Source of the DNA: a virus | Lineage: Duplodnaviria; Caudoviricetes | Strand: one strand, 5' to 3' | Length of the DNA: 64,000 bases | IMG/VR virus record: IMGVR_UViG_3300029288_000001 | Coordinates: 64,001-128,000 of that record | In this document: one piece after another, positions 1,985 to 59,130 of the stretch | Layout of the letters: each line of letters opens with the position of its first letter | Position numbering within the stretch: the stretch's first letter is position 1 | The notes under the pieces: model-generated | Told to the model about the DNA's origin: nothing | Database searches by the model: none | The model's input: only the letters and a program-made list of their open reading frames with translations | Position numbers and translations under genes: made by a program

Positions 1985-4442
1985 TTATTCTTCTTTTAAA
2001 TATTTTGGTGTCTTATACTCCGCGTATTTATCTAACCCTTTCTTGGGTATGAATTTATCTACGATCGGATAATGCTTGTGCTCTAAGATGTCTTTTACAT
2101 CGAAGTAATGAATAGTAATCTCGTTCTCGCGTTTTAACCGCGCTACCTCCGCTCTAAAATCCGCCGAGAATTCCGTCGCGATGAAGATCCCTTCCGTCTG
2201 CTTCTCTCTTAATAGAGTCCCGCTAAACGCGTCTAGATGAGCGCGCCCCGCCTTGAATTTCTTTACTTGGATAAGGCACTCCCCCAGATTGCCGTCTATG
2301 CCGCCGTCGGCGCCTCTATTGCCCGAGAAGCCTCCAAACTCGCGTATGACGAAGTTCTGGAACTCGTAGCCGTCAAGCTGGGCGATCTCCTCGGGGGTGA
2401 TGGGTAGTCCTTCTATGATATCGAACCTTACTTTAAGGCGCTTGGCGATCAACCTACACGCAGTAGGAGATACATCTATTCCGATCCATTGCCTGTTGAG
2501 TTTCTTCGCTACGGCGATCGTTGTGCCACAGTTCCCATTCAATATTACTTTTCCTTCTCTTCTTATAATGATTATATGGGAAGGAACTGTTACACAATAT
2601 ACATAGTCGTTCCAATCAATAATTTCTGCGTGTTTTAATGTAGACTCGGTTCGTTTAATCGTTCCGCTGATGCAATAACATATACTCTTCGACCAGAATA
2701 ATCGACCATCCTTTGACATTTTTTTCTCCGTTCGTGGTAGTCGTTTTGAAATCGTAACACATATACCAAGCTTAACCATTATTTCTGCTATGTTATCAAT
2801 TAATTGTTTTGAAATGCTATAGATCCGTATTCCATCTTCCCTTGTCATTCCATCTGATAAGATTAAGCCTTCTAATACATCTTGTAAGTATGGTTTATCG
2901 TAGTTTAGAACTTCTCTTGGTATCGTGCGTGTTGGTTGTTTGTGGCATTGTTTAAGATAAGTAAAGATCTCTTCGTTGTTAAAGGTATATCGTCCTTCAG
3001 TTTTCTTCCAAACTATGTTCATTTTGTTTAAGAAGTTTTTAATGTAACTATCGTTGTCTTTTATTTGGCGTATTCCTACACGATACCCCGTTGATGTTTT
3101 TCCTTCGTCAATATATCCATCACCTAGCCAGAATCCAAGGAACTTACACCATGCGTGTGGGTCTATGTTATTTGGTGGTTTCGGTATATTTCCAGAGCTA
3201 ATTCCATTGCAGTTTCTTTTAATTTTCGCTAGCCATTTTATGTCCTTAGCTTTGATAAAATCATAATCTGTATAATGAAATGTTGGGGCGGTCTTTCTCT
3301 CAGCCGCATACATGTTATGATCGGGCGTGACTAAAATGTCATACATTGTGGATTTCCAGTGATACATCTTTCCATTATGGATATATTTCTGTTTCGTTAT
3401 AGCATCTACATATTCAATGGTATTACCTTCTACTTGGGCGATCCTTTCGTTTTCTAGGTTCTTAAATTTTACCCATCCGTTCTCTGTTAATAACTCCGTT
3501 TCTCCATCGTAACATCCACAAAACGCGTCAAGGACGACATCGTTCTCGTTGGAACTGGTTTTGATTATACGTTCTAAGAGCGCTTCTGGCTTCTGTGTTG
3601 GATAACCAAGTCGTTCTTTTGATGACGGATGTAAATACATTCCATCCCATACATCTGAGCATGGTATATTAGCATCGAGATATTTTTTATAATTAGGTAA
3701 TCCTCCACTCGACCATTCGAACTCTCCACCATTCCTTACGAATTCGTCTATCTTATTTTGAGTCCATACCCAACCGTGTTTATTATCTAATTGAACTGTT
3801 TTGTCTTCCGTTGGGAAGTATCTACTTTGACCTTTTGAGACATCTACATAACTATTAGCTTTTATGATAGTTATACTTCTATAATATCCTTTGTTATCTT
3901 TTTTCTTGTATTGACCAGATAGATCTTTGGACTTTTCTTTTTGAATGTTAAATATATAATCGTCTGATTTGGTATAAATCAATATTACATCGTGGATTAC
4001 TCCAAATTTATTAGTGCCAGTTCCTTTAGCGTTCGTTCTCAACCAGCATATACGATTTAAAGGATCTCTATCGAATATTTGATCGCATAGAACTCTTAAA
4101 TACGCGTCCGCGTGCCAGTCGCAATGGAGATAGAAGCTTCCCGTTTTTTTAAGAACCCGATATATTTCCTTAATTCTCGGTTCCATCCACTCCAGATACA
4201 CGTTGATATCCTTCTTCGCCCGTCCGCTCCCGTTCTTGTTCTCGGTAATCCAACGGTCTCCAAACTGCCGTATTTCCGCGCCGTCGCCCCAAATGACCTC
4301 GTAGTTCTTGATCGCGAAGGATTAGTAAAATCTAATCGGTTTTCGTGAAGAACGGAGGGTCTATGTAGACGAGATCGACGGACTCGGATTCCAAGGTCTT
4401 GAGGACTTCTAAATTATCTCCACATATTATTCTTTCTATCAT
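1985..4442 (-). CDS. beta-class N6/N4 DNA methyltransferase fused to Mrr-like endonuclease domain; two exons (4442-4342 and 4310-1985) plus an intein
   Basis: Exon 1 reads MIERIICGDNLEVLK...VDLVYIDPPFF (motif IV). Exon 2 has KNYEVIWGD, GSFYLHCDWHA, YPTQKPEALLERII, motif I DAFCG/CGTT, WIGIDVS and C-terminal ADGGIDG...IQVK. Confidence 0.88.
2531..3514 (-). mobile_element. intein (328 aa) with LAGLIDADG homing endonuclease, inserted in methyltransferase motif I
   Basis: Starts CYDGETELLTENGW; block B VTPDHNMY; LAGLIDADG-like FLGFWLGDG and LEGLILSDG; ends VYCVTVPSH...LNGN followed by Cys+1; removal restores DAFCGCGTT. Confidence 0.93.
4311..4341 (-). other. 31-nt bulge-helix-bulge (archaeal tRNA-type) intron in the methyltransferase mRNA
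   Basis: Minus strand GTTCTT-CACG-AA^A-ACCGATTAG-ATTTTA-CTAATCCTT-CGCG-AT^C-AAGAAC; cleavage at the canonical bulge positions joins the frames to give DPPFFTNKNYEVIWGD. Confidence 0.78.
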
Positions 4443-5860
4443 TTTAATAACCTCTCTAAATATTCTGGATGATCCCTTTTCCATATTACGCCTTCTATTG
4501 AATATGGACTAATTCCTCTTTTTATAAGATCATCGTCTAATTTCTGAAAGATATTTTGTTTTCTTTTTCTTTTCTTCATTTCCTTAAACCTCTTTCTTGT
4601 TTTATGATCGTTTTAAACTATTTAAATAAAATTATTAATTAGAACTTACTTAGCGAAGGAGCAGATTCGTTAAATACTCCCATTCCTGTTTCTCTTCTTC
4701 CGTTACCTCTTCTTTCTTTAATACCAGCTTGGTGCGTAGGTAAATCCAACGATACGCGCGTTTCTTATCTATCCTTTTCGCGAGAATTTCTAACGCTTCT
4801 TCGCTTGGAAGACCTTTCTTTAACTTTTCAAAGTCTTCTAACGCTTCCATGAATTCTTTCACGGATTATCTCCTTCCAATTTCAAGAAATAAATACCTTC
4901 CTTCCCAATGTCATACCCCCGTATCCGATATTTCCGCTCGGGGTGGTTCTTGGTCGCGCGTTCAAGGCACGACTCGCAGAGCGCGATCACTTTAGAACCG
5001 CACCGCCAGCGCATTAATTCGCCTTTCGCGTCGTAGATGTCCACCGGGAGACCATCCTTGATACAGTCTTTTCCGCAGCACTTTACCACGTTATTTCTTC
5101 TCCAACTCCTTTTTATCGATTCCGCTTGCCAATTTATTAAAACACGCCCTACAAATTCGTTTCCCTTCGAACATAAACACTTGCCGTCGCTTCAATTTGG
5201 CAACGCACAACCCACAATACTTTTGTTTGGGTTCTCTTTTATAATCCGTTACTATTGGGCTCATGGTTCCTTTCTACCTCTCGGTCTCTTTTTTAATCCT
5301 CGTCGTCTTCTTCTTCTTCGTCGTCCTCGTCCTCGGTTATGGTGTCCATCGCCATTTCCCGTTCGTCTCTCGGAAGCTCGGATATCATGGACGCTCCCAG
5401 CATTCCAAACCACTCGCTATCGAGGACTACGGTGAGCTCGTTGTCTCCTTCCTTAATGCGGAAGTAATACTCACCTTCGTCGTTGTGACCTACAAGGTAA
5501 CGGATCTTCTTTCCTATATAATTTCTTTCTTCTTTCGTACCCTCCTTTTCGTAGCAGTCCCCGCACATTCCATGTTGTGTTATGGACTTTTTAATATCGC
5601 TAAAAAAAGACGAAGACACCACAATGGGAAGGATGGTTTCTCCTTCTTGAAAAGATATTGGCTCATTCATAGTATCAGACCATTTTCTTTTACATATTGG
5701 ACATTCTATATTCATATTTTTACACCTTTTTTATTCCGTAGTTCCCCGACTCGATCTGAGTCTAGGTTTAAAATAGGAAAAAAATGATTTGGTTTGGGTT
5801 TATATGTGTTTCGATTGAGGTAAAATTGTTCGTTTTCGTTCGTGATCGTCATAGAGCGGG

Positions 5861-6653
5861 CGCGGATCTTCTATGGTTTTCGGATTTAGATTGGCTCGCG
5901 TTAACAATCTGGTTTTCGAGCATTAAGTGGCTCGCGATTATATGATGGTTCTCGGACCCGTAGTGGCTCGCGCTTCGTTCATGGGTTACGGTTGTAAAGC
6001 GGCTTCGCGTATATAGAGTGGTTCTCGAACCTCTGGTGGCTCGCGTCCAAGTTTTGGTTTTCGATTAGAAAATGGCTCGCGTTTTGTTCTTGGGTTTCGA
6101 TCGTCTAATGGCTCGCGGTTTATCGGTGGGTTTCGAATGCTCTGTGGCTCGCGGTGCTAATATGGTTCTCGATTTTAGATTGACTCGCGGAAATATTGTG
6201 GTTTTCGGGGATATCATGACTCGCGGGCACATTGTGGGTTCCGAGATAGCTATGGCTCGCGTATATCCAATGGGTTTCGAGGTTTCTGAGGCTCGCGGGG
6301 TTCATATGGTTTTCGATTTTGTTGTGGCTCGCGTCTGCATTTTGGGTTGCGAAACGACCTTGGCTCGCGTAGTTAATGTGGGTTTCGAGGGTATCGTGAC
6401 TCGCGTTCTTATCTTGGCTCTCGAACTTTCTGTGGCTCGCGAAGGCGAGTTGGGTTTCGAATACCTTATGGCTCGCGTTCTTTATATAGGTTTCGAAAAG
6501 AAATTGGCTCGCGGTTATTGAATGGTTTCCGAATTTTATATGGCTCGCGACAAGGCACTGGGTCTCGAATTCTCATTGGCTCGCGTTATTGATGTGGGTT
6601 TCGAGAATATCATGGCTCGCGGTGATTTAATGGGTTTCGATCCAGTCTTGGCT
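5861..6653 (-). repeat. TIGR-type guide RNA array 1 (orphan), 22 units of 36 nt
   Basis: Plus strand TGGCTCGCG-N9-TGG(T/G)TTTCG-N9 repeated 22 times; minus-strand unit AGCCA-N9-CGAAA(A/C)CCA-N9-CGCG; variable 9-mers. Confidence 0.92.
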
Positions 6654-6948
6654 ATATAAACACCATTTCCTCCAGTCTCTCGTCCATCGACGGCGTGGTT
6701 CTCTCTACGACCTGGAGCGACATCGCTACGTAGCCTTCCGCTAAGAAAGCTTTATTGTCGAGAAGGTAGGTCACTTTACAGAGGAGCTCTCGCCCCATAT
6801 ACTTCTCGGTCGTAGGATTATAGTCCTTCAACCGCAGGTAGTCTCCCACTTTATAGTTACGATCGTTCTTTCTTATTTCGAACAACTTAACGCCGTTCCA
6901 CACGGGATTGAAATATTCTGTCCAGCACTTTAGATCGTGCGTAGTCAT
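6652..6948 (-). CDS. ASCH/PUA-like (DUF3850-type) protein
   Basis: HDLKCWTEYF...GVKLFEIRKNDRNYKVGDYLRLKDY signature. Confidence 0.8.
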   Translation of the reverse strand: MTTHDLKCWTEYFNPVWNGVKLFEIRKNDRNYKVGDYLRLKDYNPTTEKYMGRELLCKVTYLLDNKAFLAEGYVAMSLQVVERTTPSMDERLEEMVFI

Positions 6949-9900
6949 ATTTTATACTTCCTCCAATATACTTAATTCTTTTTCTATAGGAAGGTCGGGT
7001 AATTCCCCTTCCGTGATCTTAATTAACTCGGGATATAAAGACATCAACCGCATGAGCTCGTCTTCCGCGGCGTCTATGTCGCTCCAAGATTTGAGGCTCT
7101 TTAATCTTTCTTGCACGCGCCACCGAATTAACCCGAGAATTATCCAATGAAACACGCTCGCGCGTCGGACGAGCCGTATCCATAATTTCGTCTGATAATC
7201 CCAGCTATATTTAATAGCATACCATTTATTAGAAACTTTCGTTCTACGAGCGTCGTACCACGTAAATAGCGTTAAATACCGAGCTTGGAGCTTGTTATGA
7301 AGTCTATTTCGCCACAGATAGTATCTTTGTTTTATAGGACGCTTGATCGCCCGTTCGTAACACTTCTCGCACAGGAGCCTATCCCATTGATCGCCCGCAG
7401 TAAAACCTACTCTCGCGCGAAGGTCGGTAAGCGGTCTAGCGCATCGTCCACAATATTCCGTGCGATATACGCTTTCTTCTTTTTTCTTAACTTCAAAAAT
7501 AGGCGAAAACAGCCCTCCATCTTGAGGTATTTTATCAGCCAAGATTAGAGGTTTATCTTCTTCTTTTATAGCCTCTTCCTTGAATAATCTAGGATTCATG
7601 ATATAGGTTTGATCGTGTTTCCATTCAGCAGGATCGAACGGTTTGATGCTATTTAACGGTAATTCAACGAACTCAGAATCCTGTTTTTCTGTAGTAGTTA
7701 TTGGTATTCCACTGCCCGACACAACACCATAAGTGTATCCTTCGAACTCGTACACGACCTCTCCTTCGTGATAATCGCGGTCTAACCAATCGCATTCTTT
7801 CCGCGTAACTTCTCTCTTCACGATTAGTTTTCTTGGCATGTGTTTATTTCTCTCCTTATTTTGTTTTCTTCGTCATAAAATACGCTTCCGCAGTTTTTAT
7901 AAATGCGTCGAGCTGGGCGCTTATCCGATCTTTTAATTGGTCTACGAACTCCACTGCTTCCGCGTATGAATCGAAATCGTCGGGGGAAACATTGTTTTGA
8001 CAACAGCCGCAGCCGTCGTCGGAGACTTTAACCGAACCGTCGTAATCTATGCGCGGAAAAAACGTTCTTCCTTGACTTATCATCTTAGTTAGATAGCTCT
8101 TCATTTACTTTCCTCCAGAAATATTTTTTCTTGGATTAGATCGTCCAGAGCTTCGAACAGATTCTTAGCCTTTCTAAACCGTTCGATCGTGCCGTCCGTT
8201 AAGAAACAATGATCGTATTCGAGTGGGCGGACTCGTTCTTCTTCGTTCTCGTTTATCGTGATCTCGTCAGTGACATATAACTCCTCTTCGTTTCTATGCA
8301 CTAATCGTCTCGGCATTTACTTTCCTCCTTTTAATAGGTCCACGAGCGGAAATGTATCGAAGACCTTTAACCGATCTTGGTCCACGCGCACGCACATACT
8401 TCCTACATTGAAATAGAAGCGAAAACACTTCGAGGTCGCGTAGTACACTACTATGATCTTGCGGTGGAAATTGTTTAAAATATTACCGATCTTCTTCCGT
8501 TTGTTGCACGCTTTATACTTACGAACCTCGTAGGCTTGGCACGAGCTTCTCGCCTGCATATATTTTCCGATCGATATAGGGAATATGTAATATCTATATC
8601 TTGGTTCTTTTGATTTATACCAAGCTGGATGGAGATCGTACCACATCTTATCAACCACGTTGTCCGACAAATATATAGACAGAGCGTATTTCGCCTCTGT
8701 AAACATATCGAACAACGGATCTTGGCGAAGTCTTAATTGCCTCTCGTAACTAAGCTTAATATACTCCTTCCGTTCCTTTAACTTCTCCGCCCGTTTACTT
8801 ACCACCAACGCGGCGGCGTCCTTTTTCTTTTTTATTATTTCCTCGATTTCCTCTTTCGTTTTCATTTATTCCTCTTCCTCCTCTTCGTCTTCTTCGTTGC
8901 CTACGATCATGGTTAGAGCCATTAAGAACGTGTCGAGCTCGCCATCTCCCCCAAGTCCTTTATCGTCGCATTTGGAGCAGATCCCTCCGTCTATGTCTTC
9001 GTCCTCGTCCCCTAGATCGCCACAAAAAAGACACGCACCTTCGTCGGCGCGATTTATTAACTCTTTTATTTTATCTATTTTTTCGGTATCATTACTACTC
9101 ATTTTTTCTTCTCCTCCCACCAGTATCGACAGGTCTCGCACTGGTAAGTAGTCTTTTTCTGATCGTCTCGTAACTTTCTTATTCTTACGCTGAAACATTT
9201 ATGGCAGTTCCCTTTCAAAAACAACGCACCATCGTCAAGTCCACTACACTTCCATTCCACATACGCATAGAAACACCGTATCGCGTGGTATATAAACCAT
9301 ACTAAGGCACCTACGCATATAACGATTATTATACATAACATAATCCGTAGTTGTATCTAAAACTCTCGTTGTTTTTTAAAAAAAAATACAATTTAATTAA
9401 GTTTTTTTTCTATTTAAGCATTTTTATTCGTTTTAACAATCACTGTTATCGAACGAGAACTCTTTTCCACATTCTGGGCAGAAATGAAGCTCGTCCCAGT
9501 CCGTTACGGTGTATTCCATAGTAGCATAAGTTCTCGCGTTTTCGTATCTTGGATAGATCTTCATTCCTTTATAGTATAACCTTAAACCATTACTACCGTC
9601 TCGATGTGGGATAAAACCGTGCTTCCACGAGCTTATTAACGCGAACTTCGCGCCTTTAACCACGCTACATTCTTTCTTGTTTAAGAATAGTAATATCCTC
9701 AGCAGTTTTAACGAGCGCCTTTTAACCGCGATGTAAGGATACTCGGGACAGTAGAGCCCGTCGTAGTTCTTACAATGAGGACATCTATATTCCATATCTA
9801 CCATAGATTCCTTCTTTTCCAATCCTTCGTTAAACGGGTTATTTTCTGGGTTAAACTCGCAGGTCTTACACTCCTCGCATTGGTCGAAGGTATCTAAACA

Positions 9901-51709: not shown

Positions 51710-52006
51710 TTAATACTCTAGTTTTCGGATTATACGATAAGTTTTAAACTCTCTTACTGGCTCGTCGTTCTCGTCTAAATGCTCGATGGGAATCTTGATC
51801 ATATTCTTGTCTTCTTCCTCTTCCTTCTGTCCTTGATCGGTGGATGGCTTCTTCATGTGTTTGATCATTTTAAGTTCCTTGATCAAATACTCCCTCGTTG
51901 CGGCGCGGATTAACTCGCTTCGCGAAGGATATAAACCGTTCTCGCCGATCAATTTCTCGATTGCTTCGATATAGCTTTCTGGCACATTCACAGTCACGAT
52001 CTTCAT
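51710..52006 (-). CDS. CopG/RHH transcription regulator
   Basis: MKIVTVNVPESYIEAIEKL...YPSRSELIRAA. Confidence 0.85.
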   Translation of the reverse strand: MKIVTVNVPESYIEAIEKLIGENGLYPSRSELIRAATREYLIKELKMIKHMKKPSTDQGQKEEEEDKNMIKIPIEHLDENDEPVREFKTYRIIRKLEY

Positions 52007-52007
52007 T

Positions 52008-52379
52008 CTACAATCCTCCTTTTGGAATTGGTGGTTTAATCTGGGACTTCGTGGTCACGGGTTTCTGCTTCGTAGTCGTAGTACTTTTCTCTTTGGGCAC
52101 GAAATTGATTCCTCCTTCCTTTACAGCGTTCTTATCGTCTCTCTTAATATCCACGATCTTTTTTGGTATCCAAGGGTCTTTCATCGCGTTCGCGTTCGAT
52201 CTTACGTAGAGCTTGAACTTTTCTTCGTCCAAGTCTTGATACATCTTCAATTCGTTGGATAGAAAATCCCTTAACGCTAACCGTATTGCCTCGGATCTCG
52301 ACGGAATAATATCGTAATCTCCCAGAATCTTGATCGCATCGAGGTATTTTTCAGGTAAATTAATAGTTATTATTTTCAT
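52008..52379 (-). CDS. CopG/RHH transcription regulator
   Basis: MKIITINLPEKYLDAIKIL...PSRSEAIRLALRDFL. Confidence 0.85.
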   Translation of the reverse strand: MKIITINLPEKYLDAIKILGDYDIIPSRSEAIRLALRDFLSNELKMYQDLDEEKFKLYVRSNANAMKDPWIPKKIVDIKRDDKNAVKEGGINFVPKEKSTTTTKQKPVTTKSQIKPPIPKGGL

Positions 52380-57506: not shown

Positions 57507-59130
57507 TTGTTAGTTAGATTAAATAAAAAAATGATTTAGAGTTAAGATTATCACCAGCTATCGTGGATGACCACATCGCACTTGGGACAAGCGTAGAGCT
57601 TCATGTCTTCCGAGATCTTCTTGAACTCTTCTTCGTGTTCGTATTCTAAAGTCATTTTTTCGCCGTTCCATTCTCTAGATTTATGACCGCACACGGGACA
57701 TTTCATTTCTTTTTCGCCACCTTCTTTCTAGTGCATTTACTAACATCGATCAACTCAAAAGATACTTGATACCCTTTACAATACCTTCCTTTCAATTGGT
57801 GCATACAATCCTTACATTTTTCGTTCATAGTTATAGATTCCTCCTGAAATATTCTAAATCTTCTACTGGAATCGCGATCCGCCCGTGATCAGGACATCTT
57901 CCCGAATGAGGGCACACCGCGTTGGTTTCTTCGCATACTTCGTGGTGGTGCGGTTCCGTATGAAACGACTCTAGAACTCTTCCACACCAGCATTTTGGTT
58001 TCTGTCTCTCCATATTTATTCTACATCCCCGCGTTGTTTAATGGTAAGGGCTATTTGTTTGATTTGTTCGGGATCGTATTGTTCGAACCATTCGCCTTCA
58101 TCGTTCTGCGATTCGCCTCTATCCTCTAAATTATCGAGGAAAGCATCCTTAGAGCCACAGATGTCCTTCTCAATAAGACAGAACGGAGCGCACGGATCGC
58201 CACTGACAGATACGGGTAATGTAGAGTATCCTGGACATTTGTTAGGTAGCATATGAACCTCCATTTTCTTGTAGCGTAAATTAGCGTCTCGACAAAAAAC
58301 ACACTTTCCCATCGCATCAAAGGACATATTTTCGTAGTCTTTCCACTTAGTTTCCCACGATTTCTGGTATAGTTCGCGTCTTCTCTTTACATAACATTCT
58401 GGACATAATTCCATGTTCTCTACGGAGTGGTTCTTACCACATTCATCGCATATTCTATGCGTATCCACGAAGAACAGCTCTCCTTTGTATTCCTTGTTCA
58501 TTATCATTTATTTTACCTCCAATGTGTAATAATACGGTTCTCGGCAGTGGTATTCAACCGCCTTGTTAAGAGCCGCTTGCAACGCTTGTCTATACTTATC
58601 TACATAATCTGGTAACGAGTCCAACACTTCCTCCGCAGAGGCGTCCGCCATCGTGCCGAGGTTCCAGACCGTAAACTTCTTGACCTCTCCGTTAGTACCG
58701 TTTATAGAATAGCTATATATAACGACTGTAAAATCCTGACGGTGGTGGTCTACTACGATCTCGATAATAGGTTTCGAAGTCGCGAATACAGCGTGGACTC
58801 CTTGCGAAAGAGAGCCTCTCCTCGGAGTCCTATACGGTTTCAATGGTTCTCCGTTATCTCCACATATAATCGTAGCGGAACCGGTGTTAGTCGCGCCCCC
58901 GCCTCGTTCTTCCGCGAGAAGACGGAAATAATACTCGAATCCTTCGAGACAATCCACTTCTACCTTGATCGTGGACTCGTCAATCTCAAATGGCGCACTT
59001 ACACAATGCCCTTTGAGCGTCTGCCAAAACCTATCGGTTCTACCGACTGGGAAAGGGGGCATTTTTTCCCCTTTTACGACAATTTGTTTTGTTACCACAA
59101 TATCAACCTCGTTTTCTTATTTTTTATGAA

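Follow-up and report, generated by a model that had tools for sequence, protein, structure and literature searches.

The question raised by this locus is whether a TIGR array that stands far from any tas gene, in what is probably the tail of an unrelated operon, can still serve a Tas protein, and which one. The window (the whole stretch of 64,000 nucleotides that was analysed) comes from a virus record of 224,826 bp with direct terminal repeats, rated complete (100%). A search of the complete genome finds one tas gene and three TIGR arrays with 59 guides in total. The virus encodes MCM, a probable Cdc6-like AAA ATPase and RadA. Because the top named-lineage matches of RadA are Promethearchaeota, at 65% identity, an Asgard host is probable. 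The only run with the virus, and probably its source, is a landfill metagenome of 2019. The window also holds a DNA methylase gene (1985-4484), split near 4300, which has a LAGLIDADG-like insertion inside it and an Mrr-like domain at the C terminus.

The locus in question has the following features.

5861..6653, minus strand: array 1, a remote dual-repeat TIGR array of 22 units with both terminal edges truncated
6000..6009, minus strand: a 10-nt edge variant (+1 A), the only longer edge in array 1

The stretch of array 1 is found unchanged, letter for letter, in one contig of a second assembly, which comes from the same probable source run and is non-independent data.

Units of array 1 run in the order AGCCA, spacer A (9 nt), loop, spacer B (9 nt) and CGCG, with loops that are mostly CGAAACCCA or CGAAAACCA. 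Spacer A, loop and spacer B are each 9 nt long in 22 of 22 units, and the array measures 793 nt, which is 22 × 36 + 1. Array 1 thus has what defines a dual-repeat TIGR array, namely alternating edge and loop repeats of 8-12 nt, 9-nt spacers and a 36-nt period. A 5′-truncated first edge (AGCCA), a 3′-truncated last edge (CGCG) and a predicted terminator on the 3′ side are all present. Both edge and loop contain the box D and box C motifs as CG...CCA, with CG in place of the usual UG in both repeats. An Rfam search gave no match.

The preliminary description had placed a 22-unit array at 5861-6654 with repeats matching those of the arrays that flank tasA, and pattern fit and matrix scores both bear this out. 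A strict unit pattern fits all 22 units, and outside the three arrays it fits nothing in this genome or in 20 shuffled genomes. A weight matrix for which only arrays 2 and 3 served as training set gives the units of array 1 scores of 27-35 bits, against a maximum of 16.4 bits outside the arrays. The rare +1 edge was also correctly assigned to array 2, where it lies at 30430-30421 with a last base different from that of the array 1 copy. This pattern occurs twice in this genome and once among the other arrays examined, which is a modest sign of shared ancestry of arrays 1 and 2.

The possible partner protein and the two arrays linked to it are encoded as follows.

30696..31916, minus strand: tasA (406 aa), the sole Tas gene of the genome, with a Nop/Tas fold and without RuvC or HNH
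30176..30714, minus strand: array 2, 15 units, beginning within the 3′ end of tasA
31992..32785, minus strand: array 3, with 22 units, which occupies the 3′ tail of the ParB-like gene; a T8 tract at 31966 stands between it and tasA
32799..33674, minus strand: ParB-like gene (TasParB type), upstream of tasA and conserved there in related elements

From tasA to array 1 the distance is 24.0 kb, and the earlier statement that no Tas gene adjoins array 1 holds for the complete genome. The top sequence and fold matches of TasA are to TasR (9mty) and TasH structures. Its predicted model starts at the coiled coil, with no nuclease domain (RuvC/HNH) before it. Residues Y362 and H369 align with Y289 and H296 of SpTasH and are conserved; in SpTasH this Tyr/His dyad cuts precursor arrays. 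Residues ~108-129 and 181-214 form a beta-hairpin insertion with CxxC, common to the closest relatives, and a second insertion found in few. The ParB-like gene has atlas matches to ParB_N clusters at 0.93 and matches none in Pfam; its counterpart ahead of tas in a related locus (L100) is 41% identical, and it occurs also in G010, a complete related virus. A small gene upstream of it (window 33653-33928) is kept next to tas in G010 and in the related locus L095, and judging from this sequence context it is possibly a regulator of the tas operon.

If array 1 had lost its function, it could be a silent relic, left by a rearrangement that moved tas or the array, and its repeats would be drifting. 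It has no guide in common with array 2 or array 3 (6 or more of 18 positions mismatched), and none of its neighbour genes is TIGR-related, as a relic might have it. However, array 1 is the most regular of the three, with 9-nt spacers in 22 of 22 units, whereas arrays 2 and 3 contain 8-nt spacers and 10-nt loops. The G-C box pair is retained in 42 of 43 of its repeats, a conservation equal to that in the tas-linked arrays (28 of 29 and 41 of 43), and an extra edge pair in 21 of 21. Moreover, array 1 is in the sense orientation, with a stop codon before it and a terminator-like tract behind it. We therefore consider a relic improbable. Intact repeats would also be expected after a very recent translocation, which counts against function in trans.

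Where the repeats of array 1 vary, they do so at the tolerant loop positions that vary in the tas-linked arrays too, and the positional bias of its spacers correlates with that of arrays 2 and 3 (r 0.44, p 0.007). Box D is CG in all three arrays, against TG, TA or AG in the arrays of the closest Tas relatives. Because a genome-wide drift from TG to CG may explain the CG box, it speaks only for long or common residence and not for selection by TasA; observed/expected ratios in this genome are 1.43 for CG and 0.75 for TG. Separately, spacer position 5 is A in 54-61% of guides, where the overall share is 38%; this holds for both spacers and all arrays.

The surroundings of array 1 bear on how it could be transcribed.

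6652..6948, minus strand: DUF3850/ASCH-family gene (98 aa), domain complete at residues 1-80, its TAG overlapping the first truncated edge
6952..9198, minus strand: five tightly packed genes, function not assigned, upstream of the ASCH gene and after a T9 tract at 9386
5778..5790, minus strand: T7 tract with an AAATCA lead-in (AAATCATTTTTTT), a predicted archaeal-type terminator 71 nt past the end of array 1
5712..5860, minus strand: tail of array 1, stop-free over 49 codons in the ASCH frame if the array is removed, with intergenic-like codon usage

The reading frame at 6948-6652 matches DUF3850 with an E value of 5e-25, the ASCH match being weak. From their spacing and order, the five genes and the ASCH gene probably form an operon with array 1 in its tail, and the T7 tract is probably its archaeal-type terminator. 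A candidate promoter of array 1 itself, TTTATATA, overlaps the stop codon and occurs 58 times genome-wide. The first AGCCA (6653-6649) and the TAG of the ASCH gene (6654-6652) have two bases in common, as was initially reported.

Stop overlap is found at 11 of 36 hand-curated array starts, 5 of them at tas genes. Among such motifs near gene ends the background is 9.5%, and array starts lie above it (p 0.0004). Stop overlap is therefore a general TIGR trait, which fits co-transcription with the upstream gene. The preliminary description was right that a motif similar to the T7 tract follows array 3. A third copy, however, lies at 57537 behind an ordinary gene with no array, and this rules out the terminator match as a special mark of a cassette. 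Both features are thus general and do not mark a mobile cassette.

When the array is removed in silico, the ASCH frame is joined to the 49-codon tail, which ends in an ATGA overlap, as if the gene had once continued at an empty site. The log-odds of this tail is -5.7, and just 2.5% of gene ends are lower. The T7 tract lies within it, and no such tract occurs in long genes. No homologue of the tail was found among 150 ASCH relatives. It behaves as intergenic DNA and is probably not a gene; that it is a fragment of a longer ASCH frame seems rather unlikely. The synteny comparison proposed earlier, to look behind the ASCH gene for an empty site, found none: searches gave no relative that carries the genes flanking array 1, G010 is without the region, and hence no empty site is visible. 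The further claim that arrays move or seed independently does not follow, as a translocation, either of an older array or of tas, explains the layout equally well.

The main role of array 1 could also be in cis, with cutting by TasA trimming or destabilising the mRNA of the ASCH operon, or with its RNAs acting as a decoy for TasA. The first box lies on the stop codon, so that processing would put the mRNA 3′ end ~30 nt past the stop, and the enrichment of stop overlap among arrays points the same way. On the other hand, one or two repeats would be enough for such a role, and stop overlap occurs at tas genes too. The 22 distinct spacer pairs, with the length and bias of the tas-linked ones, indicate guides, making a main role in cis very unlikely.

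That the guides serve another effector is equally hard to credit, whether this be a Tas encoded by the host, a Tas of a co-infecting element or the ASCH protein next to the array: one of 400 Asgard genomes does carry tas with a similar array, and ASCH domains are annotated as RNA-binding, but that array and those of other relatives differ in box D whereas array 1 matches the virus's own, remote arrays elsewhere sit after other genes, and the family of the ASCH protein, in which it does not stand out, has more than 12,000 clusters.

We thus prefer, with a probability of about 0.8, the reading that array 1 is transcribed as the operon tail and is then cut and loaded in trans by the single TasA of the virus. 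Here we infer transcription, processing and targeting from the observed architecture, repeat identity, single tas gene, Tas fold and dyad. Array 1 would be read as the untranslated tail of the operon that ends with the ASCH gene, and the transcript would stop at the T7 tract. TasA dimers, made 24 kb off, would bind the CG/CCA boxes, and the Tyr/His dyad would cut each full edge repeat to give ~20 internal 36-nt guides. A guide would lead the nuclease-free TasA to a DNA site of ~17-18 bp, where spacers A and B would lie on opposite strands. Bound TasA may then block transcription at the target, as for another TasA; repression of transcription by TasA is on record (bioRxiv 10.64898/2026.09.09.750476).

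Guides from separate cassettes function in cells (PMC12045711; bioRxiv 10.64898/2026.07.30.739390). Array 3 likewise stands in another gene's tail, with a T8 tract ahead of tasA, which we count in favour of function in trans. The original proposal that an unrelated operon carries, in its 3′ tail, a reservoir of guides acting in trans is upheld by the one tas gene, the identical and undecayed repeats and the same layout in other phages. Its corollary, that guide sets are expressed at different times, finds no support, as array 1 and the tas operon are in the same minus-strand block of ~100 kb, which also contains replication genes, located between the two loci.

Remote arrays occur in other genomes as well. 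In G001, a phage with one tas gene, they are found on both strands and as far as 85 kb away; G005 has ~30 units 22 kb from tas; and G009 has arrays 4 and 9 kb from tas on the opposite strand. Within each of the three genomes, the repeats of the remote arrays are those of the tas-linked ones, with the same box D. Remote TIGR arrays appear common. These genomes are incomplete (76, 82 and 49%) and were found by the array pattern, which favours multi-array genomes, and for these reasons they give no frequency of remote arrays. G010, which was found via tas, has a single array adjoining tas.

Two side observations concern the same genomes. G001 (IMGVR_UViG_3300021560_000014) has ~13 TIGR arrays across 106 kb with its one tas, and several of them are flanked, in one orientation or the other, by a conserved 21-nt motif ending GGGGCCGC that might serve as promoter or recombination site. 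At 72.8 kb in G001 and 19.8 kb in G009, array flanks rejoined by eye restore a stop codon (TAA and TGA), as if a block had entered between stop-codon bases 1 and 2.

The spacers themselves show a regularity. In 30 of 57 units of this genome, base 9 of spacer A is complementary to base 9 of spacer B, where 22.0 units are expected (p 0.003); array 1 alone has 11 such units of 22 against 8.4 expected. Having been noticed in this genome, the pairing was then tested on ten independent loci of the closest TasA clade (L095, L098, L100, L119, L122, L123, L125-L127 and G010), where 60 of 103 pairs are complementary against 39.5 expected (z 5.2). There the spacer-end pair ranks first of 81 position pairs, the runner-up having a z of 2.0. 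Duplication of units by descent could inflate these counts. In G010 the pairing has reversed polarity (19 of 28). Among more distant Tas proteins, the arrays mostly show a purine in each of the two positions, and pairing is weak at best. The complementarity suggests either a target overlap of one base pair or an RNA pair at the guide centre.

A bolder reading is that TIGR arrays are seeded at gene ends genome-wide, independently of tas, as whole blocks shaped like mature guides, and that the spacers of this clade share a central base pair (a 17-bp target). This reading is doubtful. If true, the shared central base pair would be a trace of guide acquisition, and searches for natural targets would have to change.

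Some loci related to this virus are organised in other ways. The array before the closest tasA relative (L095:3238-3890) is split by repeated AT-rich linkers and has duplicated guides. The array of G010 (3523-4690) has 30 units with AG as box D, and recombined units pair an old spacer A or B with new partners. In an Asgard genome bin (G157:C506, locus L119), tas with an eight-unit array is followed by homologues of two virus genes (window 51710-52379).

Target searches in the virus's own genome, G010 and ~1 Mb of related loci gave none above chance, and cross-targeting with G010 was not found; that no guide has a target in these searches counts against function in trans. An excess of self-matches with 2-3 mismatches (56 against 32.5, p 0.0025) was rejected as self-targeting: it is largely due to one low-complexity guide (10 matches), has no codon-position-3 bias and is gone when counted per unit (p 0.1-0.8). 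Among ~535 guides compared with 0.95 Mb, there was no perfect match in the expected geometry. With the overlap geometry, 23 near-matches against 14 expected were found in the clade loci, a hint only, as the centre base is mostly wrong. Two guides scanned in IMG/VR had 1 and 19 matches, about the chance level, one match being an exact 18-mer; the sole gene that the matching loci have in common with the virus is a RadA-like gene in L146. Because the virus, G010 and the related loci yielded no targets, host genes or competing mobile elements remain, by exclusion, the most likely ones.

A guide array apart from its effector gene is familiar from orphan CRISPR arrays and viral CRISPR mini-arrays acting in trans, and viral mini-arrays usually borrow Cas proteins of the host. 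Array 1 differs from them in belonging to another RNA and protein family and in having its effector on the same genome.

The nearest known systems are the TIGR-TasA systems with TasParB of Faure et al. 2025 (PMC12045711). Alike are the 36-nt units of edge, spacer A, loop and spacer B, the truncated first and last edges, the terminator after the array, the solo Nop-domain TasA, the ParB-like gene upstream, and arrays before, between or after these genes. Different are a third array of full size that lies 24 kb from tas in an unrelated operon tail, box D as CG rather than UG, the CxxC hairpin insertion of this TasA, and the covariation of the final bases of the two spacers, where the paper reports no obvious covariation.

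The TIGRFinder survey of Xu et al. 2026 (bioRxiv 10.64898/2026.09.09.750476) likewise has arrays upstream, downstream or within tas, a Tyr/His dyad in dual-repeat systems and nuclease-free Tas as repressor. It covers arrays surrounding tas loci, with a stated context of up to 10 kb, against 24.0 kb here. Both descriptions have arrays near tas only, and the word "orphan" is absent from them. Adjacency to tas, a feature of TIGR-TasA systems, is found for arrays 2 and 3, and array 1 is the variant in this respect. Array 1 is an intact standard member of a known family in a position outside these descriptions. Guide counts based on the proximity of tas, as in published surveys, would here miss 22 of 59 guides (37%). 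Remote arrays could also explain some of the tas genes reported as arrayless, which Xu et al. pose as an open question. The two stated open questions of TIGR-Tas are natural targets and guide acquisition, and testable handles on both come from three non-redundant arrays in one complete genome together with a clade-wide spacer-end rule.
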